Shown here piece by piece: positions 1-11,938 of a stretch of 64,000 nucleotides of DNA. A program made the translations under genes and the position numbers. Origin of the DNA: Candidatus Latescibacterota bacterium (GTDB lineage Bacteria; Latescibacterota; UBA2968; GCA-2709665). The number at the start of each line of letters is the position of its first letter. Positions within the stretch are counted from its first letter, which is position 1. The notes beneath the pieces were generated by a model. The model was given only the letters and a program-made list of their open reading frames with translations. It searched no databases and was not told the origin of the DNA. The stretch lies in assembly GCA_965203805.1 (NCBI GenBank), contig OZ241917.1, forward strand, positions 4,096,001 through 4,160,000, read 5' to 3'.

Positions 1-969
1 TTCAGTGGTTTTGTTCTTCGCGCCCGGCCGCGCGGTGGCCGACTTGACAACGGTTACAAGCAGTATTGCTTCGGACCAAGAGAAGTTAGATCCCAAATCG
101 TATCAAATGCAACATACACAACTCGTGCTTTGACGAATGGTCGATCCCTGTCGGCAGTGCGTATCCCAGTCCCACCAAAGCCTGAGCAACGCGCCATCGC
201 CGCGGCATTGTCGGATGTGGATGGGTTGCTCACGGCGCTGGAAGCGCTGATCGCCAAAAAGCGAGCCATCAAGCAGGCCGCTAGGCAACAACTCCTTACC
301 CGCAAGACTCGGTTGCCCGGGTTCACCGGGGCGTGGGTGACGAAGCGATTAGGTGAGCTAATTCGAATAATACCAAGTGGGATCTACGGCTTACCAAGAC
401 AAAACGGGCAACTAATAGCAATGCCAGTCGCGACCACAGCACACATTGATATTGGTGACAGGTGGAATCACAAGAATATGGACATTCGCTATTTCACGGA
501 AAATCAAAAAGCGAATTTTTCGCCTAGACAGGGCGATTTGATCGTTGTTAAATCAAGCGGCTCGTCCGAAAGTATACAATCTGGAAAGGTTGGATATGTC
601 TCGGATGATCAAGCTGGGTTATTCATCTTTAGCAACTTTTTGATGCTCCTTCGCCCAATTTTCTGCAATTCACAATTCTTGTTCTTTCAACTGGTATCTA
701 GTCGAGTGAAAAAGATGCTGCCACATTTGGTTGAAGCATCAACCTATCCCAATATCCGTATTGACGACTACTTGGACCTACAGATCCCGTTGCCGCCAAG
801 TGAGGAACAGGCAGCGATTGTGGACATCTTATCTGAAATTGATGCCGAGATTACTTCTCTGGAGCTACGGAGAGACAAAGCCCGTGCTATTAAATGTGGT
901 ATGGTGCAGCAGCTTCTCACCGGCCAGGTTAGGCTGGTCGACCCCGACTTTGATCACGCCAGGAGCTGA
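1..969 (+). CDS. hsdS: Type I restriction-modification specificity subunit (5'-truncated by window edge)
   Basis: Frame 1 is open from base 1 (FSGFVLRARP...). Two conserved HsdS helical segments (IPVPPKPEQRAIAAALSDVD...KKRAIKQAARQQLL; IPLPPSEEQAAIVDILSEID...KCGMVQQLLTG) flank a variable TRD. hsdR lies downstream. Confidence 0.95.
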   Translation, partial: FSGFVLRARPRGGRLDNGYKQYCFGPREVRSQIVSNATYTTRALTNGRSLSAVRIPVPPKPEQRAIAAALSDVDGLLTALEALIAKKRAIKQAARQQLLTRKTRLPGFTGAWVTKRLGELIRIIPSGIYGLPRQNGQLIAMPVATTAHIDIGDRWNHKNMDIRYFTENQKANFSPRQGDLIVVKSSGSSESIQSGKVGYVSDDQAGLFIFSNFLMLLRPIFCNSQFLFFQLVSSRVKKMLPHLVEASTYPNIRIDDYLDLQIPLPPSEEQAAIVDILSEIDAEITSLELRRDKARAIKCGMVQQLLTGQVRLVDPDFDHARS

Positions 970-1044: not shown

Positions 1045-1998
1045 ATGTCCGATGCATTCAACACAAAGAAACAGCCAGTACCTTCTAGCATTGGTGACGA
1101 GTGCTTCCCTGCCCTATACCATTCTGCTGACAAAGCCTCACTTTCCGCGCAACAGCGTTTCATCTGTCTGCAAAGATGGCAAATCACTTGCCTCATTTTG
1201 GGTAGCGTTGGTGCTGTCACTGCGACAAATGTTGAGGTCGAAGTCGTCAAATTGGCTTATATTGTTTCGGCGATCGTACTAGCAATTCTAGTCATCCTCA
1301 CTTGGGTAACGCGTGCCCGTCGGGATGATAAAGTTTGGTTCGACTGTCGCGCCATTGCAGAGTCCACAAAGACAGCTACGTGGCGCTTCATGATGAAAGC
1401 TGCACCCTTCAAGGATGACAGCAAGGCTAGAAAGTTGTTCATTAACGAGCTTCGGCTAATACGAAAAGCGAGACCATTCATTGCGCAAAATTTGGCACAC
1501 AACTTAGACGCAAACGCCCCGTCCATAAGTGACTCAATGGATAATGTGCGCCAGAAGCCCTTGAATGATAGGCGATACGTGTATCTTGTGTCAAGGCTTC
1601 GCGACCAAAAGATTTGGTATTCCAATAAAGCCAAATTCAACTCAAGGATGGAACGGCGCTGGTTCTTTGGGGTGTTGGTACTACAGATTCTTGCCGTTGC
1701 TCTTGCAATCATCTGTGCTGCTACGGGTAGTTTGCCGGTAAACATCGTTCCATTGGTGTTAACCAGCGCCGCTGCTGGTATTGCATGGACCCGGATAAAG
1801 CGCTACGCTGAGCTAGCTCAGTCCTATTCGCTTGCGGCCCAAGAACTAGGAGACCAAGAAACAACCGCGTTGGATATAACGGAAGAAGCTGATTTCCTCG
1901 AACTCGTGGAGCAGGTCGAGCAGACCGTTTCTCGAGAGCACACTATGTGGTGTGCACGCCGAGATATAGTGTTCGATCCATCCGACATAAAGTACTAA
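1045..1998 (+). CDS. SLATT/DUF4231-type membrane effector (two tandem 2-TM SLATT-like domains)
   Basis: FPALYHSADKASLSAQ N-terminus, TM pair, WFDCRAIAESTKTATWRFMM, second TM pair, C-terminal VEQVEQTVSREHTMW; this pattern is typical of DUF4231/SLATT proteins. Confidence 0.8.
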   Translation: MSDAFNTKKQPVPSSIGDECFPALYHSADKASLSAQQRFICLQRWQITCLILGSVGAVTATNVEVEVVKLAYIVSAIVLAILVILTWVTRARRDDKVWFDCRAIAESTKTATWRFMMKAAPFKDDSKARKLFINELRLIRKARPFIAQNLAHNLDANAPSISDSMDNVRQKPLNDRRYVYLVSRLRDQKIWYSNKAKFNSRMERRWFFGVLVLQILAVALAIICAATGSLPVNIVPLVLTSAAAGIAWTRIKRYAELAQSYSLAAQELGDQETTALDITEEADFLELVEQVEQTVSREHTMWCARRDIVFDPSDIKY

Positions 1999-3104: not shown

Positions 3105-3818
3105 ATGGCGACGATAAAATTCACGCTTCTGGCTATTGAACAAGCGATCCGCGATGTCTGCAACACATTAGACGAGCGCCCCGCTGTGTCATGGAGAAAG
3201 CACAACGAAGGTGATTTGTGGCGGGAGCTTGTGTCATGTATCCTCGGTAGTCGGGTTCGAATTAACGTTGTAAACTCAGCCATCGAACGCATGACCAGAA
3301 TGTCTTTGTTGTCGCGACCCCAGCCACACACTTGTTTCAATCAACTTGAAGAGGACACTCTAGCAGCACTTAAGGGAGTTTATCCTTTTTTTCGTGTCCG
3401 TGCCAATCAGATTCGGCGGGCAGCAGAGCACATATACAGTTCACGAGGTTCAATACGCAGCCTGTTAAACGACTTAGAAGACGTTTGCATCGCTCGAAGA
3501 TTGCTAGTGCGAGAGGTTCCCGGTCTGGGACCGAAACAGGCAAGTCTTTTCCTTCGCAACATTGGTTTTGCAAAGTACATTGCGATCTTGGATGTACATG
3601 TTCTGACTTATTTGCGTTGGGTAGGAATTAGTGGCTCATCGTTCAAATCGATTTCGAATCTGTGCGAATACGAAGCGTTGGAAGGCGCCTTTATCGAACA
3701 TGCCTGTGCGTTCGGATACTCGCCTGACCAATTCGACCTTGCGGTCTGGATTGTAATAAGGGTGGCAAAGGAGGAATCCAAATTTGCGGATCGTGACTCT
3801 TGTATCGGGTGGATATGA
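3105..3818 (+). CDS. 8-oxoguanine DNA glycosylase/N-glycosylase-like, HhH-GPD superfamily (Cap11-like)
   Basis: LWRELVSCILGS; HhH motif VPGLGPKQASLFLRNIG with Lys; AILDVHV with catalytic Asp; C-terminal FDLAVW. ATG at 3105 with GGAG upstream, just after the TGT stop. Confidence 0.85.
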   Translation: MATIKFTLLAIEQAIRDVCNTLDERPAVSWRKHNEGDLWRELVSCILGSRVRINVVNSAIERMTRMSLLSRPQPHTCFNQLEEDTLAALKGVYPFFRVRANQIRRAAEHIYSSRGSIRSLLNDLEDVCIARRLLVREVPGLGPKQASLFLRNIGFAKYIAILDVHVLTYLRWVGISGSSFKSISNLCEYEALEGAFIEHACAFGYSPDQFDLAVWIVIRVAKEESKFADRDSCIGWI

Positions 3819-4380
3819 TTCAACACTTGTGAGCGTGATAGCGAAGGAGGAGGGAGCGGAGTTGTTTCCGCTCTTTATAGACTACGGCCAGCTTGCCGTA
3901 CGCAAGGAGTGGGAAGCCTGCGTGTGCCTTCACTCACAATTTGGTCTACCTCCTGTGACGTACATGGACTTGTCTGGGTTTGGAAAGACGATCTCAAGTG
4001 GTCTCACAGATTGTAATTTGCGTATTAATGAAGATGCATTTTTGCCGGGTCGCAATCTCCTCTTTGTCTTGGCAGGTGCGGCTCATGCTATCGACGTTCA
4101 GGCAAATAGCATCGCGCTCGGCCTACTCAATCCCGCGGATCATATCTTCCCAGACCAGACGAAACAGTTCTTGGAAGAATGCGAAAGGATGATCGAGGTT
4201 GCGATGGGGAGCCGCATTCTTGTCCTTGCGCCATTATTGGAGTTGTCAAAGCGAGAAGTCTTGCTCTTGGCCAGCAAACGAGGGATCACACAAACCTATT
4301 CGTGTCATGCTGGTGGTAAAGAACCTTGCGGGGTTTGTATTGCATGTATTGAAATCGATAATGCTAAAAAAAGGAGATAA
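3784..4380 (+). CDS. QueC-like (7-cyano-7-deazaguanine synthase family; Cap9-like) PP-loop enzyme
   Basis: PP-loop SGGYDS, IDYGQ, FLPGRNLLF, FPD, Zn motif YSCH...PCGVCIAC. TTG start overlaps the end of the glycosylase gene. Confidence 0.9.
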   Translation: MRIVTLVSGGYDSTLVSVIAKEEGAELFPLFIDYGQLAVRKEWEACVCLHSQFGLPPVTYMDLSGFGKTISSGLTDCNLRINEDAFLPGRNLLFVLAGAAHAIDVQANSIALGLLNPADHIFPDQTKQFLEECERMIEVAMGSRILVLAPLLELSKREVLLLASKRGITQTYSCHAGGKEPCGVCIACIEIDNAKKRR

Positions 4381-4382
4381 AG

Positions 4383-4886
4383 ATGGGCGGCATAGGTAGT
4401 GGTAGAGAATTAGACCCAAACGAACTGGAGTCACTCGAGCAGAGTGTCAGAAGGTCTCTTAAGGATCGTGTCGACGAGCACAAACGCAATGTGTTTATAA
4501 GCTTTTCATCGGATGATCTCAGTGAGGTTAATCTGCTGCGTGCTCAGGCGAGGAACCAAGACAGCAACATAGATTTCAATGATTGGTCACTGAGAAAACC
4601 GTTCGACAGTGAGGTAGCCGACTATATAAGGCGCGGTATTAGGGAACGAATTCGCCAATCTTCTGTAACTGTTGTCTATGTGTCTGAAAACACCGCAAGT
4701 AGCAAATGGGTCGACTGGGAGATAAGGGAGAGCCTCAAAATGGGAAAAGGCGTCGTTGCAATGCACAAAGGAAACACTGCACCACGACGACTTCCTAAGG
4801 CAATAATCGACAACAACATTAGTGTCGTACCCTGGAGACAAGATCACCTTGCGAGTATCATTGAGAGGGAATCCGAGAATCGTTAG
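4383..4886 (+). CDS. TIR-domain protein (ThsB/MTH538-like) with Gly-rich N-terminal extension
   Basis: RNVFISF, DFNDWSL, IRERIRQSSVTVVYV, SKWVDWEI (catalytic Glu), VVPW. AGGAG RBS; starts 2 nt after the queC-like stop. Confidence 0.88.
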   Translation: MGGIGSGRELDPNELESLEQSVRRSLKDRVDEHKRNVFISFSSDDLSEVNLLRAQARNQDSNIDFNDWSLRKPFDSEVADYIRRGIRERIRQSSVTVVYVSENTASSKWVDWEIRESLKMGKGVVAMHKGNTAPRRLPKAIIDNNISVVPWRQDHLASIIERESENR

Positions 4887-5104
4887 AAACGCAGGAATTA
4901 ACATTGACATGAAACGCCTCAGCAGTTTTCCTTGGGATTTGGCCGCAATTAGAATCGAGATTTGACTTTTCTGGACGGCGATTCTCTAATTAGCCGGACA
5001 TAAACGGGGGATAAGATGAATATTAACGAACCAAATGCCCCGTGCCTCTTGGGATTGCTAAATTGACGTCTTACAGTTAGGTGCTCGCTGAGGAGGGTCC
5101 CAAA

Positions 5105-6451
5105 ATGTTGACACGGCTACGTTTAGAGAATTTTAAATCCTGGGAAGATACAGGGAACATAACGTTTAAGCCTATCACAGGGTTTTTTGGTACCAATAGT
5201 TCTGGCAAGACCAGCCTTTTTCAAGCTCTGCTGTTAATGAAACAAACAGTCGACTCTTCGGACCCGGGAATTGTATTTCACTTCGGCGATGAGAAGACAC
5301 CTGTGGACCTAGGTGACTTTGAAAGCGTGGTCCACCAGCATGATACAAAGCGAAGTATTAAACTTTCACTTGGCTGGAACTCAGAGATTGAACTGCCTAT
5401 ATACGAAATTCGTAAGGCAGGGGCGACATCGCCAGGTGGCGAAATTGGCTTTGTTGCCGAGATCAAGGAAGAAAACATCGGTTCAGGGAAGTCTCCGATA
5501 TTGCAAGAAATGGCATATAGAGTCCGAGGGAGGCGGTTTGGATTGGTGCGTATAGCCGGTCGCAAGGCACACGAACTATTTGTTCAAGGTGCTGGTTTCG
5601 ATCACTCCCACCGTGTAAGGGATGACGAAAGAAATGTTAGGTCGCTCAAATTTCACGAGTTTCGATATTGGCCGCCTGAGTTCCTCAAAGACCCCACAGC
5701 AATGTACAGTCTACAAAACGCGATGGAGAGATTCCTGCGCGATCTCTATTATCTTGGACCTCTACGTGGCTACCCGTCTCGCATATATGCACGATCGGGA
5801 GCGCAACCGCGTGACATGGGCGCAGCAGGTGAGTTTGTAGTCGATGCGATACTTTCTTCACGTGAACGCGGCAGGAGAATTGGACAACGTAAACAATCTC
5901 AAAGTTTCGAGAGATATGTCGCTCAATGGCTAATGCGTCTCGGGATGATATTCGACTTTCGCGTAGTGGCATTAACTAAAGGGAGAAACTTGTACGAAGT
6001 AAAGGTTCGTAAGTCGCCCGATTCAGCGGAGGTCCTCCTCACTGACATTGGTTTCGGGGTTTCCCAGATTCTTCCCGTGTTGGTGTTGTGCTTTTATGTC
6101 CCCCGTAAGTCCAAGGTCATTTTGGAGCAGCCAGAGATTCACTTGCATCCTTCTGTACAGGCGGGCCTTGCTGATGTATTTATTGACGCTTGGCAGCAGC
6201 GCAATGTGCAGGTCTTGTTCGAAAGCCATAGCGAACATCTATTGCTTAGACTTCAACGTCGAATCGCAGAAGGAAAGATCAACAAGGATGACGTTAGCCT
6301 TTATTTCTGTTCAATGAACGACCAGGGTGCCTCAAACATTAGCCAGCTCGAGCTTGACAAATTCGGGAATATTTCCAATTGGCCTAAAGGGTTCTTTGGG
6401 GATCAGTTCGGTGAAATTGCCGCCATGAGCGAGGCCTTACAGAATAGGTAG
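5105..6451 (+). CDS. ABC-type AAA ATPase (AAA_15/AAA_21, DUF3696-like C-terminus)
   Basis: LENFKSW, Walker A GTNSSGKT, signature GFGVSQILP, Walker B ILEQPEIHLHP, H-loop ESHSEH, C-terminal WPKGFF. AGGAGG RBS before ATG 5105. Confidence 0.9.
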   Translation: MLTRLRLENFKSWEDTGNITFKPITGFFGTNSSGKTSLFQALLLMKQTVDSSDPGIVFHFGDEKTPVDLGDFESVVHQHDTKRSIKLSLGWNSEIELPIYEIRKAGATSPGGEIGFVAEIKEENIGSGKSPILQEMAYRVRGRRFGLVRIAGRKAHELFVQGAGFDHSHRVRDDERNVRSLKFHEFRYWPPEFLKDPTAMYSLQNAMERFLRDLYYLGPLRGYPSRIYARSGAQPRDMGAAGEFVVDAILSSRERGRRIGQRKQSQSFERYVAQWLMRLGMIFDFRVVALTKGRNLYEVKVRKSPDSAEVLLTDIGFGVSQILPVLVLCFYVPRKSKVILEQPEIHLHPSVQAGLADVFIDAWQQRNVQVLFESHSEHLLLRLQRRIAEGKINKDDVSLYFCSMNDQGASNISQLELDKFGNISNWPKGFFGDQFGEIAAMSEALQNR

Positions 6452-6462
6452 GGGTATCTCGA

Positions 6463-6963
6463 GTGAATTCGAAGAAACCTGAGATAATCATGGATACCAA
6501 TGTCGCCGTAGTTGCAAATCATAATTACCAAGACTTCAACCGGAGTTGCATATTTAAGTGTAGAGAAACATTAAGTATGATCCAGAACGGAGGGTTTCGG
6601 CTTCTTCTTGACGACGAGAATCTGATTATAGACGAATACCGAAGAAACCTCAACCCTTCAGGGGAGCCTGGTCTCGGGGACTATTTCTTCCTGTGGCTTT
6701 GGAAAAACCAAGCTAACGACCAGCATTGCCGGAAAATCACAGTAAAGCCTCACCGAGACCGTGGCTTCGAGGAGTTTCCCAATGACCCAGATCTCGATAC
6801 TTTCGATTGGGATGATCGAAAGTTCGTGGCTGTAGCGTTGGCTAGCCATTCTAGTCCGGAGTTGTTAAACGCATCTGATACAGATTGGTGGCACCACCGC
6901 GCAACACTTCAAAAAAATGGGATTCACGTGGTGTTTGTCTGTCCGGACCTGATGGACGATTGA
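6463..6963 (+). CDS. PIN-domain-like protein (putative ribonuclease)
   Basis: Acidic PIN pattern IIMDTNV, IIDEY, DWDDRKFVAVA, ASDTD. Starts 11 nt after the ATPase stop. Confidence 0.65.
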   Translation: MNSKKPEIIMDTNVAVVANHNYQDFNRSCIFKCRETLSMIQNGGFRLLLDDENLIIDEYRRNLNPSGEPGLGDYFFLWLWKNQANDQHCRKITVKPHRDRGFEEFPNDPDLDTFDWDDRKFVAVALASHSSPELLNASDTDWWHHRATLQKNGIHVVFVCPDLMDD

Positions 6964-7038
6964 GGCCAACTCATCGAGTGCGGCCAATGTCTTTCTCCCA
7001 GTTGTGAACTGGCCCGAGTTACTAAATTGCGAACGTAC

Positions 7039-10000
7039 ATGAACACAATCGGTCAAAACGAATTTCGCACACAGCGACGGGTGATTTCTTTCTTGCGGGA
7101 TTCGCTAGGGTACTCCTATCTCGGCAACTGGCAGGACCGCGTCGATAACAGTAATGTTGAGGAAGGGCTGCTCACCGATTGGCTGAAGCGAAATGGTCAC
7201 GGCGACAGTGTTATCAACAAAGTTCTGCGTGAACTGGACAACGCATCAGCACTCGGCGGCAGCAAGACTCTCTACGAAGCAAACCGTGAGGTTTATAGAC
7301 TGCTCCGTTACGGAGTGAAGGTCCGACCGGACGTCGGCGAACCGAACGTCACCGTCTGGCTGATGGACTGGGAGAATCCCGGTAAAAACGACTTTGCAAT
7401 CGCCGAGGAGGTTACAGTCTCAGCGACGAACAGCAAACGACCGGACATTGTGCTATACGTCAATGGGATCGCTCTCGGGATCCTGGAACTGAAGCGCTCG
7501 ACGGTTTCTGTGACCGAGGGCATTCGTCAAAACCTTGACAACCAGAAAAAGGAGTTCATCCGCCCCTTTTTCACCACCGTGCAACTCGTGATGGCGGGCA
7601 ATGATACCGAGGGGTTGCGTTACGGCGTAATCGAGACACCTGAGAAATACTGGCTGCACTGGATGGAAGCGAACGCCAACCCGGCTGCCGGCGATAATCC
7701 ATTACTGCGCGAGCTGAGTCAACTCTGCAGTAAAGAGCGATTACTTGAGATTATACATGATTTCGTCGTCTTTGACGCTGGGGTAAAGAAGATTTGCCGC
7801 CACAACCAGTACTTCGGGGTTCGTGCCGCACAAAAACGCGTAAAGATCCGAGAAGGCGGTATCATCTGGCACACGCAGGGGAGTGGAAAGAGCCTGACGA
7901 TGGTCTGGCTTGCGAAATGGATTCGCGAGAACGTCACCGACGCAAGGGTCCTTCTCATAACGGATCGCACGGAATTGGACGAGCAAATTGAGACTGTTTT
8001 CAAGGGTGTCAGCGAGGACATCTACCGGACGAAAAGTGGAGCTGATCTCGTGCAGGTGCTTAACAGACCCGACGAATGGCTGATCGGCTCCCTTATCCAC
8101 AAGTTCGGTACAACCGACGATATCAGCGAAAGAGAAATCGAGGCCTACGTCGACGAGATCAAGAAGAATCTACCCGGTGATTTCCGTCCCAAGGGCGAAA
8201 TTTTCGTTTTCGTGGACGAATGTCACCGCACCCAGTCCGGAAAACTCCACGAGGCAATGAGGGCAATTTTACCAGGCGCTTCGCACATTGGCTTTACTGG
8301 AACCCCTTTGCTCAAGGCAGACAAGCGCCGCAGCATCGAGACTTTCGGAACCTACATCCACACCTATAAGTACGACGAAGCGGTGCGCGATGGCGTGGTG
8401 CTGGACTTGCGTTACGAAGCACGTGACATCGATCAGATTATAACTTCGCAGGAGAAAATAGATCAGTGGTTCGAAATCAAGACTCGCGAGTTGACCGACG
8501 TCGCTAAAGCCGAACTAAAGCAGCGATGGGGGACGATGCGAAATGTCCTTAGTTCCGAGGATCGGTTGAGAAAAATCGTTGGCGACATAATGTTCGACAT
8601 GCAGACGCGTGACCGGTTGAAAAGTGGTCGCGGAAATGCATTGCTTGTTTCCGGAAGCATCCACTCTGCCTGCCGCCTCTTTGATATGTTTCAGCAGACC
8701 GATTTGGCGGATAGGTGCGCCATTGTCACGTCTTACAAACCGGCCCCGGGGGACATCAAGGGAGAGGAAACGGGCGAGGGGCTTACCGAGAGACTTCGCC
8801 GTTACGGAATCTACCGAAGGATGCTTTCGGCTCACTTCAACGAGCCTGAAGACAAGGCGATGGGCAAGGTCGCCACGTTTGAGACGGAGGTAAAGAAACG
8901 GTTTATCGAGGAACCGGGACAGATGAAGCTGTTGATCGTCGTAGATAAACTGTTGACAGGTTTCGATGCACCATCGGCGACCTATCTTTACATTGACAAA
9001 CACATGCAGGACCACGGGCTCTTCCAGGCGATCTGCCGGGTAAACCGCCTCGACGGTGAGGACAAAGAATATGGATACATCGTCGACTACAAGGACCTGT
9101 TCCGTTCGTTGGAGCAGTCGATTCAGGATTACACCGGAGGTGCCTTCGGCGGGTACGACCGCACCGATGTGCAGGGGTTGCTGACAGACAGGCTCGCGAA
9201 GGGGCGGGAACGACTCGAGGAGACACGTGAGGCTATCAGGGCTTTGTGTGAGCCCGTCGCCCCGCCCCGCAACCGGTCGGCCTATCTACGTTTCTTCTGT
9301 GGGACAGATAGTGGAAACGGGGGCTGGCTTAATGCGGACAATGAGGCAAGGCGAGTTACGCTTTACAAGCGGGCTGCTGCGTTTTTGAGGGCTTACGCCA
9401 ACCTGGCCAATGAGATGCCCGACGCCGGTTACAGTGAAGCCGAGGCGCAAGAGATAAAAGCAGAAGTAGCCCACTACGAAAATGTCCGCAAGATAGTCAA
9501 GCTCGCGAGCAGCGACTACGTTGACCTGAAGATGTTTGAGCCTGCCATGAGGCACCTCCTCGACACCTACATCCGCGCCGAGGAGAGCGAAAAGCTCTCG
9601 GCGTTTGACGATCTGACACTTGTACAGCTAATCGTCAAGAAAGGTGATAAGGCGTTAGATGCACTTCCAGACGGTATTCGCAGTGATCAGGAGGCGACGG
9701 CCGAGACGATAGAGAATAACGTCCGCCGTCTCATCATCGACGAGACCCCGGTCAACCCTAAATATTACGGCAAGATGTCTGAGTTGTTGGACGCCCTGAT
9801 CCTTCAGCGTAAGCAGGAAAGCCTCGACTACAAGGTGTACCTTGCGAGAATTATTGACTTGGCCAAAAAAGTCAGCAGTCCTGAATCCGAAACGTCCTAT
9901 CCGTCGGAAATCGACACCAACACGCTCAGGTCTCTATTCGATAACTTACAGGGTGCCGCACTTGGACAAGACAAGGCCTATGCCGACACTGGGATGGAGC

Positions 10001-10191
10001 TTTCCGCGGATGAACTTTCCGCAAAGGCGGTCGCTGTGGATAACGCCATCCGTTGCGTCAAGAAAGCGGACTGGCGTGGAAACAAATTTAAGGAACGGGA
10101 GGTCCGCAACGCTATAAGGTCGCAACTCGGCGACAACGAGGGCCTCGTGTACCACATATTCGAGATTGTAAAGGCGCAGAGTGAATACTGA
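7039..10191 (+). CDS. hsdR: Type I restriction endonuclease subunit R
   Basis: Nuclease motif RPDIVLYVNG..LELK, Walker A HTQGSGKS, DECHR, GFTGTP, LLTGFDAP, QAICRVNR. Confidence 0.97.
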   Translation: MNTIGQNEFRTQRRVISFLRDSLGYSYLGNWQDRVDNSNVEEGLLTDWLKRNGHGDSVINKVLRELDNASALGGSKTLYEANREVYRLLRYGVKVRPDVGEPNVTVWLMDWENPGKNDFAIAEEVTVSATNSKRPDIVLYVNGIALGILELKRSTVSVTEGIRQNLDNQKKEFIRPFFTTVQLVMAGNDTEGLRYGVIETPEKYWLHWMEANANPAAGDNPLLRELSQLCSKERLLEIIHDFVVFDAGVKKICRHNQYFGVRAAQKRVKIREGGIIWHTQGSGKSLTMVWLAKWIRENVTDARVLLITDRTELDEQIETVFKGVSEDIYRTKSGADLVQVLNRPDEWLIGSLIHKFGTTDDISEREIEAYVDEIKKNLPGDFRPKGEIFVFVDECHRTQSGKLHEAMRAILPGASHIGFTGTPLLKADKRRSIETFGTYIHTYKYDEAVRDGVVLDLRYEARDIDQIITSQEKIDQWFEIKTRELTDVAKAELKQRWGTMRNVLSSEDRLRKIVGDIMFDMQTRDRLKSGRGNALLVSGSIHSACRLFDMFQQTDLADRCAIVTSYKPAPGDIKGEETGEGLTERLRRYGIYRRMLSAHFNEPEDKAMGKVATFETEVKKRFIEEPGQMKLLIVVDKLLTGFDAPSATYLYIDKHMQDHGLFQAICRVNRLDGEDKEYGYIVDYKDLFRSLEQSIQDYTGGAFGGYDRTDVQGLLTDRLAKGRERLEETREAIRALCEPVAPPRNRSAYLRFFCGTDSGNGGWLNADNEARRVTLYKRAAAFLRAYANLANEMPDAGYSEAEAQEIKAEVAHYENVRKIVKLASSDYVDLKMFEPAMRHLLDTYIRAEESEKLSAFDDLTLVQLIVKKGDKALDALPDGIRSDQEATAETIENNVRRLIIDETPVNPKYYGKMSELLDALILQRKQESLDYKVYLARIIDLAKKVSSPESETSYPSEIDTNTLRSLFDNLQGAALGQDKAYADTGMELSADELSAKAVAVDNAIRCVKKADWRGNKFKEREVRNAIRSQLGDNEGLVYHIFEIVKAQSEY

Positions 10192-10915
10192 GTGGAAAAC
10201 TTACAGCATTGAGGTACGAGGGACTGCGGTCGACGTGGTCCACAAGGACATCAAAAACCTCCATATTGGGGTTTACCCGCCGAACGGCAGGGTGAGAGTG
10301 GCCGCTCCGCTCAGTCTTGATGATGACGCGGTGCGGATGGCTGTTGGGTCTCGGCTGGGATGGATTCGTCGCCATCAGTCGAAATTCGAGAAACAGAGTC
10401 GGCAGTCCCAGCGGGAATTCGTTACAGGAGAAAGCCATTATTTCGAGGGGAGGCGCTACCGACTCGATGTAACGGAACAGGACGGTCGACCTTCGGTCTG
10501 TCTCCTCAATAACACTACTATGGGTATGTGCGTTCGCCCCGGCGCCGACCGGAATACCAGAGAGTCCGTGCTGGATCGATGGTACCGCCAGCATCTCCGT
10601 GATCGTCTACCGGGCCTCATCGCGAAGTGGGAACCTGAATTGGGTGTGGAAGTCAATGAAGCTCGTATCAGGAAGATGAAGACTCGTTGGGGTACCTGCA
10701 ACCCGAATGCCTGTCGAATCTGGCTGAATCTCGAGCTGGCAAAGAAACCGGCATCCTGCCTAGACTTCGTCGTTCTCCATGAAATGGTTCACTTGATCGA
10801 GCGTCGTCACAACGATCGTTTTCGGTCGCTGATGGACAGGTTCATGCCAACTTGGCGCTATCACCGGGACGAACTCAATCGATCGCCACTGGCGCATGCG
10901 GACTGGCAGTATTGA
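10181..10915 (+). CDS. M48/DUF45 (YgjP-like) metal-dependent hydrolase, copy 1
   Basis: MKTRWGTC, HEMVH zinc motif, HNDRF. Overlaps the hsdR stop, a usual position for this family. Confidence 0.92.
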   Translation: MNTEWKTYSIEVRGTAVDVVHKDIKNLHIGVYPPNGRVRVAAPLSLDDDAVRMAVGSRLGWIRRHQSKFEKQSRQSQREFVTGESHYFEGRRYRLDVTEQDGRPSVCLLNNTTMGMCVRPGADRNTRESVLDRWYRQHLRDRLPGLIAKWEPELGVEVNEARIRKMKTRWGTCNPNACRIWLNLELAKKPASCLDFVVLHEMVHLIERRHNDRFRSLMDRFMPTWRYHRDELNRSPLAHADWQY

Positions 10916-11203
10916 ATGAGATCAAGGCTTAGGGCCCCCGGGCACCGCCAGCTCTAGAATTCAGATTCGCGAAGAATTCGCCTTTACCTTGAGCAATATC
11001 AAACCCATCGATACTCTTCTGGTGGGGATGTACCAGAAATTCGGCGATCAGCTTGGCGAGAATGCGGCGATGGTCGCCGAGCTGTGTCAGGGATAGTTCG
11101 TCCGGTGGCGGCGGGGACTAAAAGTCCGCAATGCTATCAAGTCCCAATCTGGTAACAATGAGAACCTCGTGCGCCGATTCAGTCGAGATTGCGACGGTGG
11201 AAA

Positions 11204-11938
11204 GTGAAGAATAGGCTGAAAAATTACACCATTGAGGTACGAGGAGCCGCAGTGGACGTCGTGCACAAGGACGTCAAGAACCTGTACATAAGGGTCTACC
11301 CACCGAACGGTCGTGTAAGGGTGTCCGCGCCGCGTCGTTTCGATAAAGACGACGTGCGAGTGGCCGTCACTTCCCGTCTTGAATGGATTCGTCTGCAGGA
11401 GGCGAGATTTCAGCGGAAATACCACCAGTCCGAGCGGGAATTCATAACGGGCGAGAGACATTTTTTCGAGGGCCGACGCTACCGGCTCGAGGTGACGGAA
11501 CGGGACACCCCGCCTGAGGTCCGCCTCCTTGACAATACGACCATAGCGATGCGCGTTCGGCCGGGCGCAGACAGGGTTAATAGGGAGGCCGTACTGGATC
11601 GATGGTACCGACGCCATCTCCGTGATTTTCTTCCGGGGATCATTGCAAAATGGGAGCCCGAAATGGGGGTGCGGGTCAACGAAGCGCGGATCAGAAAGAT
11701 GAAGACCCGTTGGGGGACTTGCAATCCCCAGGCCCGCCGAATCTGGCTGAGTCTCGAGCTGGCAAAGAAACCGGCATCCTGCCTTGAGTACGTCGTTGTG
11801 CATGAGATGGTCCACCTGATCGAGCGCCGTCACAACGATCGTTTTTGGAAACTGATGGACAGGTTCATGCCAACCTGGCGATATCATCGCGATGAACTCA
11901 ACCGCTCGCTATCGGGAAATGAGCACGGGCGATATTGA
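11204..11938 (+). CDS. M48/DUF45 (YgjP-like) metal-dependent hydrolase, copy 2
   Basis: Paralogue of 10181-10915 with the same motifs. GTG 11204 aligns with the GTG start of copy 1. Confidence 0.9.
   Translation: MKNRLKNYTIEVRGAAVDVVHKDVKNLYIRVYPPNGRVRVSAPRRFDKDDVRVAVTSRLEWIRLQEARFQRKYHQSEREFITGERHFFEGRRYRLEVTERDTPPEVRLLDNTTIAMRVRPGADRVNREAVLDRWYRRHLRDFLPGIIAKWEPEMGVRVNEARIRKMKTRWGTCNPQARRIWLSLELAKKPASCLEYVVVHEMVHLIERRHNDRFWKLMDRFMPTWRYHRDELNRSLSGNEHGRY

Follow-up and report, generated by a model that had tools for sequence, protein, structure and literature searches.

In type IV of the anti-phage signalling systems based on cyclic oligonucleotides (CBASS) the CD-NTases begin with an M(G/S)G(G/S)GG motif, the G2 of which bears an N-terminal 7-amido-7-deazaguanine (NDG); this conjugate sits in the active site of Cap10 and is required for defence, a G2D substitution abolishes defence, and the disordered tail of CdnD together with its helix alpha1 docks on both Cap9 and Cap10 (10.1101/2025.04.06.647259). 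The text of a recent preprint extends the theme to Thoeris by describing operons that carry cap9, cap10 and cap11, with AlphaFold3 interface predicted TM-scores (ipTM) of 0.79 with Cap10 and 0.62 with Cap9 for the ThsB of Pseudomonadales bacterium SP163, and suggests a similar mechanism for them; as far as that text goes, these operons are presented as predictions, without experiments on them (Yirmiya et al., bioRxiv, Dec 2025, 10.64898/2025.12.03.692087). The same text describes type VII Thoeris, in which ThsB is paired with the SLATT effector ThsH and the signal is canonical cyclic ADP-ribose (cADPR). Here we analyse a stretch of 64,000 nucleotides from a Candidatus Latescibacterota bacterium (contig OZ241917.1, positions 4,096,001 to 4,160,000; the whole of it hereafter called the window and numbered from its first letter), which holds an operon of a SLATT effector, a Cap10-like TGT, a Cap11-like OGG, a Cap9-like QueC and a TIR, in other words the ancillary genes known from type IV CBASS, but with the CD-NTase replaced by a TIR (Table 1). 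With a probability that we put at about 0.72, this operon would be a Thoeris-type system equipped with type IV CBASS ancillary genes, in which the Cap9-like QueC tags Gly2 of the TIR with a 7-deazaguanine base.

All five open reading frames (ORFs) lie on the forward strand and either overlap or are separated by gaps of at most 58 nt. The end of the OGG-like gene overlaps the start of the QueC-like gene by 35 nt, a GGAGG at 3770-3774 precedes the TTG start of the latter, and its TAA stop (4378-4380) is followed after 2 nt by the ATG of the TIR gene at 4383. None of the five proteins matches a nucleotidyltransferase (CD-NTase) family in Pfam, and the TIR occupies the position of that enzyme. Because the CD-NTase is absent the operon is not a type IV CBASS, and because the signal enzyme is a TIR its signal cannot be a cyclic oligonucleotide. 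The likeness to type IV CBASS lies in the same three ancillary genes, in a Gly/Ser-rich tip whose disordered tail leads into a helix, in most of the base-binding and catalytic residues, which the QueC-like and TGT-like proteins keep, and in a 2TM/SLATT-type effector; the difference is that the window encodes an NAD+-consuming TIR rather than a nucleotidyltransferase, and the partner-binding surfaces must differ as well. Type VII Thoeris, as that preprint's text presents it, likewise pairs a ThsB-type TIR with a SLATT-domain membrane effector, but it consists of two genes and lacks the ancillary ones, of which the window operon has three. QatABCD shares with the window a QueC-family enzyme, QatC, and a partner, QatB, whose N-terminal tail is flexible and whose Gly2 is essential; according to the available portion of its description (PMC13279940), however, QatC is large and remodelled, with extra domains, QatB starts with MGTS, and the system comes without TGT-like or OGG-like genes and without a TIR.

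The Thoeris operons with cap9, cap10 and cap11 in the text of Yirmiya et al. resemble the window operon in having a ThsB TIR, an effector and cap9-, cap10- and cap11-like genes, and the SP163 operon is one of the loci of our own survey (L073), where its TIR is 47% identical to that of the window, the gene order is the same and the effector is a SLATT protein. In comparison with that example the window operon belongs to another lineage, its closest relatives being Candidatus Latescibacterota, and in comparison with the operons of that text it has an upstream effector with two domains, SLATT_3 and SLATT_1. The window operon is a complete further example of a kind of operon already predicted in print. 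The initial annotation of this DNA, made from the sequence before the present analysis, had put forward the TIR as a third class of substrate for deazaguanylation; the comparative evidence given below speaks for that idea, which is not new since it is already in print in the same preprint (10.64898/2025.12.03.692087), although the Met-Gly-Gly motif and its conservation go unmentioned in its text, figures and supplements aside. The main text of a survey of the QueC family (PMC13082051) mentions neither TIR nor Thoeris, and in the available part of PMC13376578 TIR is absent and Thoeris occurs only within the reference list. Concerning the two precedents on which that annotation drew, Cap9 does conjugate Gly2 of the CD-NTase, but the adduct on QatB was, by the available text of PMC13279940, inferred and not measured. 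Its further suggestion that the TIR would be switched by the conjugate goes further than what is established for type IV CBASS, which needs the conjugate for defence.

The prediction of an N-terminal acceptor stands or falls with the start codon of the TIR. The ATG at 4383 is the earliest ATG, GTG or TTG past the in-frame stop on the 5′ side, and an alternative start is implausible because the next in-frame candidate, a GTG at codon 37 (4491-4493), sits within the first beta-strand of the TIR fold. From this unambiguous start the N-terminus of the protein reads MGGIGSGRELDP, and the opening MGGIGSG, 2 nt behind the queC-like gene, agrees with what the initial annotation had reported, as does its estimate of an extension of roughly 35 residues ahead of the fold. 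The Pfam ThsB_TIR match spans residues 38-130. In the AlphaFold2 model (mean predicted local distance difference test score, pLDDT, of 76.4) residues 1-11 have no secondary structure and residues 1-14 a pLDDT below 50, residues 12-28 form a low-confidence helix, and the fold opens with a strand at 35-40. When the family profile is aligned with the solved TIR 8fz9_A (E 9.5e-20), residue 2 of the latter pairs with position 34 of the former. As these three approaches converge, we take the TIR fold to begin around residue 35. Within the fold, Glu113 of the W-x-x-W-E motif is presumably the catalytic glutamate, an assignment that we take over from TIR NADases; W112 and E113 are kept in all 38 TIR sequences aligned, and the TIR is for this reason probably an active enzyme.

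If the glycine tip is the acceptor of a base supplied by the neighbouring enzyme, it should be conserved in the family and travel with the QueC-like gene. Of 1160 candidates from a database search with the TIR, 1108 reached E <= 0.001. The N-termini of the best 120 homologues (161-172 residues, 62-93% identity), taken from independent gene calls, begin with MGG in 110 cases, MGS in 8, MVG in 1 and VGG in 1, so that 118/120 read MG(G/S), a figure free of any bias in the picking of starts because the gene calls were made by others. For the genomic surroundings one genome per species was scanned; 170 stretches matched, 114 of them encode a relative of the TIR, and the best 80 were kept (L001-L080), which come from many phyla and whose neighbouring genes were found by tblastn with the window proteins. 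A QueC-like hit lies directly 5′ of the TIR in 76 of these 80 loci, a TGT-like hit is found upstream in 72, and the OGG-like homologue holds the same position in 71. In 73 of the 76 QueC-linked loci Gly-Gly comes directly after the start codon of the TIR, a count to be read with the knowledge that starts, here and in the TIR family alignment, were picked as a start codon followed by Gly. In 54 of the 73 the TIR begins 0-4 nt beyond the QueC stop, and the tail from Gly2 to the fold measures 34-36 residues in 65/73. G2 and G3 are invariant in the family alignment, the rows of which were chosen as start codon plus Gly-Gly, and while TIR identity falls to about 44% across the loci, G2-G3 and the length of the tail are unchanged.

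TIRs matching PF08937 served as controls, namely four others in the genome of the window and the 29 best-scoring loci from a sample of 151 genomes of the same phylum. A QueC link is present in four of these 33, each of which carries the Met-Gly-Gly tail. The 29 unlinked ThsB TIRs, in contrast, begin at the fold: none has a Gly-rich tail and a single one has Gly2 (L113, MGRRVF, tail-less and directly at the fold), with the reservation that two of the 29 (L111 and L115) carry internal stops and have unreliable N-termini. The linkage counts do not represent independent events, because all linked loci share one TIR family. Conservation of Gly2 in linked but not in unlinked loci was the comparison that the initial annotation had itself proposed, and with 73/76 and 4/4 on one side and a tail in 0/29 on the other, this comparative evidence supports its interpretation.

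The loci that deviate are few. Of the four without a QueC-like hit, two (L025 and L045) are truncated where their contig ends, the others being L046 and L058. Among the QueC-linked loci, L026 has no in-frame start codon for the TIR, and the TIR of L013 (start at L013:6962) begins Met-Ala-Gly-Ser-Gly-Gly-Gly; if this start is real, the acceptor there would be the amine of an Ala. Two loci are degenerate. At L028:6308-7354 the QueC-like frame is fused in frame to the TIR fold, the tail is gone and neither a TGT-like nor an OGG-like gene is present, and at L046:7001-7363 the TIR is present only from residue 47 and the ancillary genes are absent.

The QueC-like enzyme keeps what it would need for this task. 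A search of the PDB with the single sequence gave Cap9 (9nto_B) as the best match at E 3e-12, with canonical QueC close behind at E 9.8e-12. By alignment its S8, D12 and S13 correspond to S18, D22 and S23 of the Cap9 ATP loop, and its R90, F122 and D124 to Cap9 R86, Y115 and D117, which contact the conjugated base. The SGGxDS loop, R90/N91, F122, D124 and four Cys are thus conserved in the window protein, and across 38 members of the family the ATP-loop and base-contact residues and the Cys4 zinc site are invariant or nearly so (strictly invariant are S7, G8, G9, D11, S12, C173, C181, C184 and C187, in a numbering that equals that of the window protein minus Met1). With 198 residues the protein is of minimal size, and its Y-G-Q-L-A-V-R-K-E fits the Y/FxQ(x)5E variant, in which the canonical His is lacking, two features by which the Cap9 cluster has been described (PMC13082051). 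Against the NCBIfam QueC model it reaches 112 bits and stays under the cut-off of 150.3, which two host QueCs pass with 161.9 and 158.7 bits, and it has no match to NCBIfam QatC at E <= 0.001. On its sequence alone the enzyme cannot be assigned to the Cap9 clade, but the features needed to work like Cap9 appear to be present.

For the TGT-like protein the nearest solved structure is Cap10. Its single sequence found only one protein in the PDB, Cap10 (9ntn_A, E 1.2e-7), and the family profile gave Cap10 at E 1.3e-18, with an archaeosine TGT as runner-up at E 2.7e-7. All 37 family members compared have D108, S109, D143, H235 and D257, the counterparts by alignment of Cap10 D73, S74, D122, H226 and D248, so that the catalytic pair of Cap10, D248/H226, is retained as D257/H235. 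In a genome-wide search with Pfam TGT the protein scores 27.6 bits, compared with 505 bits for the housekeeping TGT of the host, which is encoded outside the window.

We also modelled the complex of the QueC-like protein with the TIR, giving each protein an alignment of 38 rows and running three controls. The pair scored 0.42 (runs of 0.38, 0.44 and 0.42) and the controls 0.00, a result that the tool grades as weak support. In calibration 58 of 80 solved complexes attained the mark for a complex, as did 2 of 110 mismatched pairs, and scores of 0.60 or below comprised just 7 of those 80 solved complexes and both of the mismatches that passed. The QueC-TIR runs share at least 84% of their contacts, and the partners have a pLDDT of at least 71. 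Part of the score may come from likeness to the complex of Cap9 with CdnD, which has already been solved.

None of folE, queD and queE lies within the 64-kb window, as the initial annotation had stated when it looked to host queuosine metabolism for the precursor, and the corresponding host genes could be located elsewhere in the genome. The host has a GTP cyclohydrolase IB (GCHY-1/FolE2, 292.8 bits), a search of the host genome for type I FolE (PF01227) having found none, as well as a match to the PTPS/QueD family PF01242 (65.5 bits) and a QueE-like radical SAM protein, for which the five best NCBIfam hits are without exception to QueE models, though none of them reaches the cut-off of its model. 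The sole genome matches to GCHY-1/FolE2, PTPS/QueD and QueE fall outside contig positions 4096001-4160000, and so do the two host copies of canonical QueC that pass the NCBIfam cut-off. Judging from these genes it is reasonable that 7-carboxy-7-deazaguanine (CDG) would be supplied by host queuosine metabolism. A candidate QueD frame (in L090) had no NCBIfam match and was set aside, which leaves the PF01242 genome match as the evidence for QueD. One of the host QueC copies (L086, G000:C1:1072189-1072818) lies in an open frame of 510 residues, 418 from the first start codon, and carries about 195 residues of unidentified sequence N-terminal to its QueC domain.

From these features we infer a covalent adduct on the TIR, its role, the signal molecule and a defence phenotype, along the following lines. 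Met1 of the TIR would be removed by methionine aminopeptidase, the Cap9-like QueC would adenylate host-made CDG with ATP, and the amine of Gly2 would attack the activated base to leave an NDG on the N-terminus of the TIR. The base pocket of the Cap10-like TGT would then take up the modified tail and hold the TIR primed but inactive; alternatively, the Cap10-like protein might transfer the TIR to a target via the free N9 of the base. The OGG-like protein may undo the Cap10-like step. Upon infection the TIR would cleave NAD+ to yield a signal derived from ADP-ribose, possibly cADPR as in type VII Thoeris, and this signal would open the SLATT effector and stop the cell.

A bolder version of this scheme takes up the alternative role of the Cap10-like protein. 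Here infection would see the TIR joined covalently, by way of N9, to a ribose or nucleic-acid target, deazaguanylation would be a portable priming module for unrelated enzymes that produce signals, the OGG-like protein would cut the link, and both the assembly of the TIR and NAD+ cleavage would depend on base exchange. That the TIR is perhaps not merely held is suggested by the fixed tail of 34-36 residues and by the transglycosylase Asp/His pair that the Cap10-like protein keeps, and we entertain this version tentatively while regarding it as rather doubtful.

Several observations weigh against deazaguanylation of the TIR by a Cap9-like QueC. The literature on deazaguanylation and on Thoeris/ThsB yielded no experimental test of an adduct on any TIR, and the weak grade of the QueC-TIR complex score counts on the same side. 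The way in which starts were picked favours the count of 73 loci, three QueC-linked loci (L013, L026 and L028) lack the Met-Gly-Gly start, and L058 has an MGS-type tail, yet the 424 nt of sequence upstream of it contain no QueC-like gene. As for the enzymes, the family profile of the QueC-like protein lies nearer canonical QueC (2pg3_A, E 2.4e-27) than Cap9 (E 2.4e-20), and the PADLOC CBASS-QueC model, which gave the window protein 94.4 bits and one host QueC 97.4 bits, was rejected as evidence for Cap9. K154 of Cap10, one of its four base-reading residues, pairs with Leu174 in a gappy stretch of the TGT-like alignment. Finally, the QueC-like protein has Phe-Pro-Asp-Gln at residues 121-125 (window 4144-4158), with an Asp-Gln that is invariant in the family. 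The corresponding motif is Tyr-Pro-Asp-Cys in canonical QueC, and for the Cap9 cluster Tyr-x-Asp-Cys has been described (PMC13082051); given this exchange of Asp-Cys for Asp-Gln, a different substrate for the QueC-like enzyme is conceivable. If the family has indeed drifted away from the chemistry of Cap9, the tail might bind the QueC-like and TGT-like proteins but receive another adduct, built from a different base or carboxylate, or none at all and act as a docking peptide. The invariant Asp-Gln, the proximity of the profile to canonical QueC and the lack of conservation of K154 would all suit such a case, and the authors of the QatC study, in the available part of PMC13279940, leave a distinct modification open. 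However, the ATP loop and the Arg, aromatic residue and Asp that hold the nucleobase are invariant or nearly so, the TGT-like family keeps without exception the Asp-Ser and the Asp by which Cap10 reads the base, along with the catalytic Asp/His pair, and the near-universal Gly-Gly at positions 2-3 suits an N-terminal amine acceptor, whereas a docking peptide would not need it. We therefore judge another adduct, or none, to be unlikely.

Two further explanations detach the tail from the enzymes altogether. The QueC-like, TGT-like and OGG-like proteins, all three of nucleic-acid or nucleobase enzyme descent and the first with a profile near that of canonical QueC, could insert 7-deazaguanine into DNA or RNA in the manner of Dpd, with the TIR acting independently and its Gly-rich start being incidental. 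This is very improbable, given that the TGT-like protein is so far removed from the host TGT by Pfam score and has the protein-binding Cap10 as its best solved relative, that the QueC-like protein remains under the NCBIfam cut-off for QueC, and that the order of the four genes and the 0-4 nt spacing of QueC and TIR are kept across many phyla, with the tail present where QueC is linked and not where it is missing. Still less credence is due to the view that the Gly-rich N-terminus is a flexible linker, a site for some other modification or a degradation signal, and that QueC accompanies it through shared ancestry. The descent of all 80 loci from one TIR family does favour such a view, but G2-G3 and a tail of fixed length (34-36 residues, 65/73) persist down to 44% TIR identity, the same motif is found on the unrelated CD-NTase fold beside the same enzymes, and in two degenerate loci without the TGT-like and OGG-like genes (L028 and L046) the tail or the front part of the TIR is gone as well. 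Deazaguanylation of the TIR at Gly2 is thus the reading that we prefer.

Table 1. Features of the TIR operon and of its surroundings, in window positions.
Feature	Position	Strand	Evidence
hsdS, specificity subunit of a type I restriction system	1..969	+	Methylase_S
Predicted membrane effector, 317 aa, SLATT_3 + SLATT_1	1045..1998	+	Pfam SLATT_3 E 1.8e-33, SLATT_1 E 6.9e-33
Cap10-like, strongly diverged TGT-family protein, 348 aa	2057..3103	+	Weak Pfam TGT E 3.3e-11; PADLOC TGT E 7.9e-26
Cap11-like OGG / HhH-GPD glycosylase homologue, 237 aa	3105..3818	+	Pfam Ogg-HhH E 3.7e-23, HhH-GPD E 1.2e-6
Cap9-like QueC-family enzyme, 198 aa, TTG start, predicted CDG-protein ligase	3784..4380	+	Pfam QueC E 3.6e-34
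Shine-Dalgarno-like AAGGAG	4371..4376	+	6 nt 5′ of TIR ATG, within the end of the QueC-like gene; sequence reading
ThsB-type TIR, 167 aa, predicted signal producer and deazaguanylation substrate	4383..4886	+	Pfam ThsB_TIR PF08937 E 3.5e-25; PADLOC ThsB E 2.6e-17
TIR N-terminal extension, residues 1-34	4383..4484	+	Gly/Ser-rich tip 1-11, helix 12-28, linker 29-34; AlphaFold2
Gly2 codon, predicted 7-deazaguanine acceptor once Met is removed	4386..4388	+	G2/G3 invariant in the TIR family alignment; MG(G/S) in 118/120 independent gene calls
Glu113 codon in W-x-x-W-E motif	4719..4721	+	W109, W112, E113 invariant
HEC-03 two-gene candidate system: AAA_15/AAA_21/DUF3696 ATPase (gene 1) and 166-aa protein (gene 2)	5081..6963	+	PADLOC HEC-03B E 2.4e-128 (gene 1); PADLOC HEC-03A E 6.7e-33, no Pfam family (gene 2)
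hsdR, R subunit of a type I restriction system	7027..10191	+	HSDR_N, SWI2_SNF2, T1R_D3-like
YgjP-like/SprT-like metallopeptidase	10181..10915	+	E 2.2e-61
YgjP-like/SprT-like metallopeptidase, paralogue	11189..11938	+	E 3.9e-64
N6-methylase/MmeI-like gene, 981 aa	12658..15603		
Single open reading frame, 3423 aa	24695..34966	-	

The SLATT protein of the window also matches DUF4231 in Pfam (E 9.9e-14) and, weakly, the PADLOC model of 2TM CBASS effectors (E 2.1e-5), and tblastn with it gives a hit in 36 of the 80 loci. Five of the loci without such a hit were scanned, and all five have a short DUF4231/SLATT_1 ORF of 140-166 residues just 5′ of the TGT-like gene (L035:1430-1924, L064:4188-4688, L023:295-726, L040:1864-2289 and L033:4299-4721), from which it follows that SLATT-type effectors are commoner in the family than 36/80. 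Elsewhere other partners replace the SLATT gene (L019:2824-4599, L029:7254-8501, L052:252-662 and 3332-4639, L078:4072-5837). L019, L029, L052 and L078 encode a protein of 415-443 residues, which in both loci scanned (L029 and L052) has TPR-S / MAP3K_TRAF_bd domains, and in L019, L052 and L078 there is a second, tail-less TIR-like ORF of 136-139 residues, the copy scanned (L019) matching ThsB_TIR. A gene for a PfkB-like kinase lies 5′ of the TGT-like gene at L059:3032-4192 (the one locus scanned, with a weak Pfam match of E 3.4e-6), and by position a gene of this type is also found in L074 and L056; these are alphaproteobacterial and Pseudomonas loci.

By its gene content the neighbourhood of the TIR operon in the window is a predicted defence island. 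The candidate HEC-03 system follows directly downstream of the TIR, and the operon and HEC-03 together sit between the specificity and R subunit genes of the type I restriction system. Beyond the latter come the two neighbouring paralogous metallopeptidase genes, followed by the N6-methylase/MmeI-like gene.

If the preferred reading is true, conjugation of a nucleobase to a protein would be no peculiarity of one type of CBASS but a means by which immune signalling enzymes are generally primed, and it would act on two folds that are unrelated and whose signals differ chemically. The TIR family, large and uniform across many phyla, would then offer a convenient second system in which to pursue the question of the conjugate's target in type IV CBASS and of the way its transfer sets the enzyme free.

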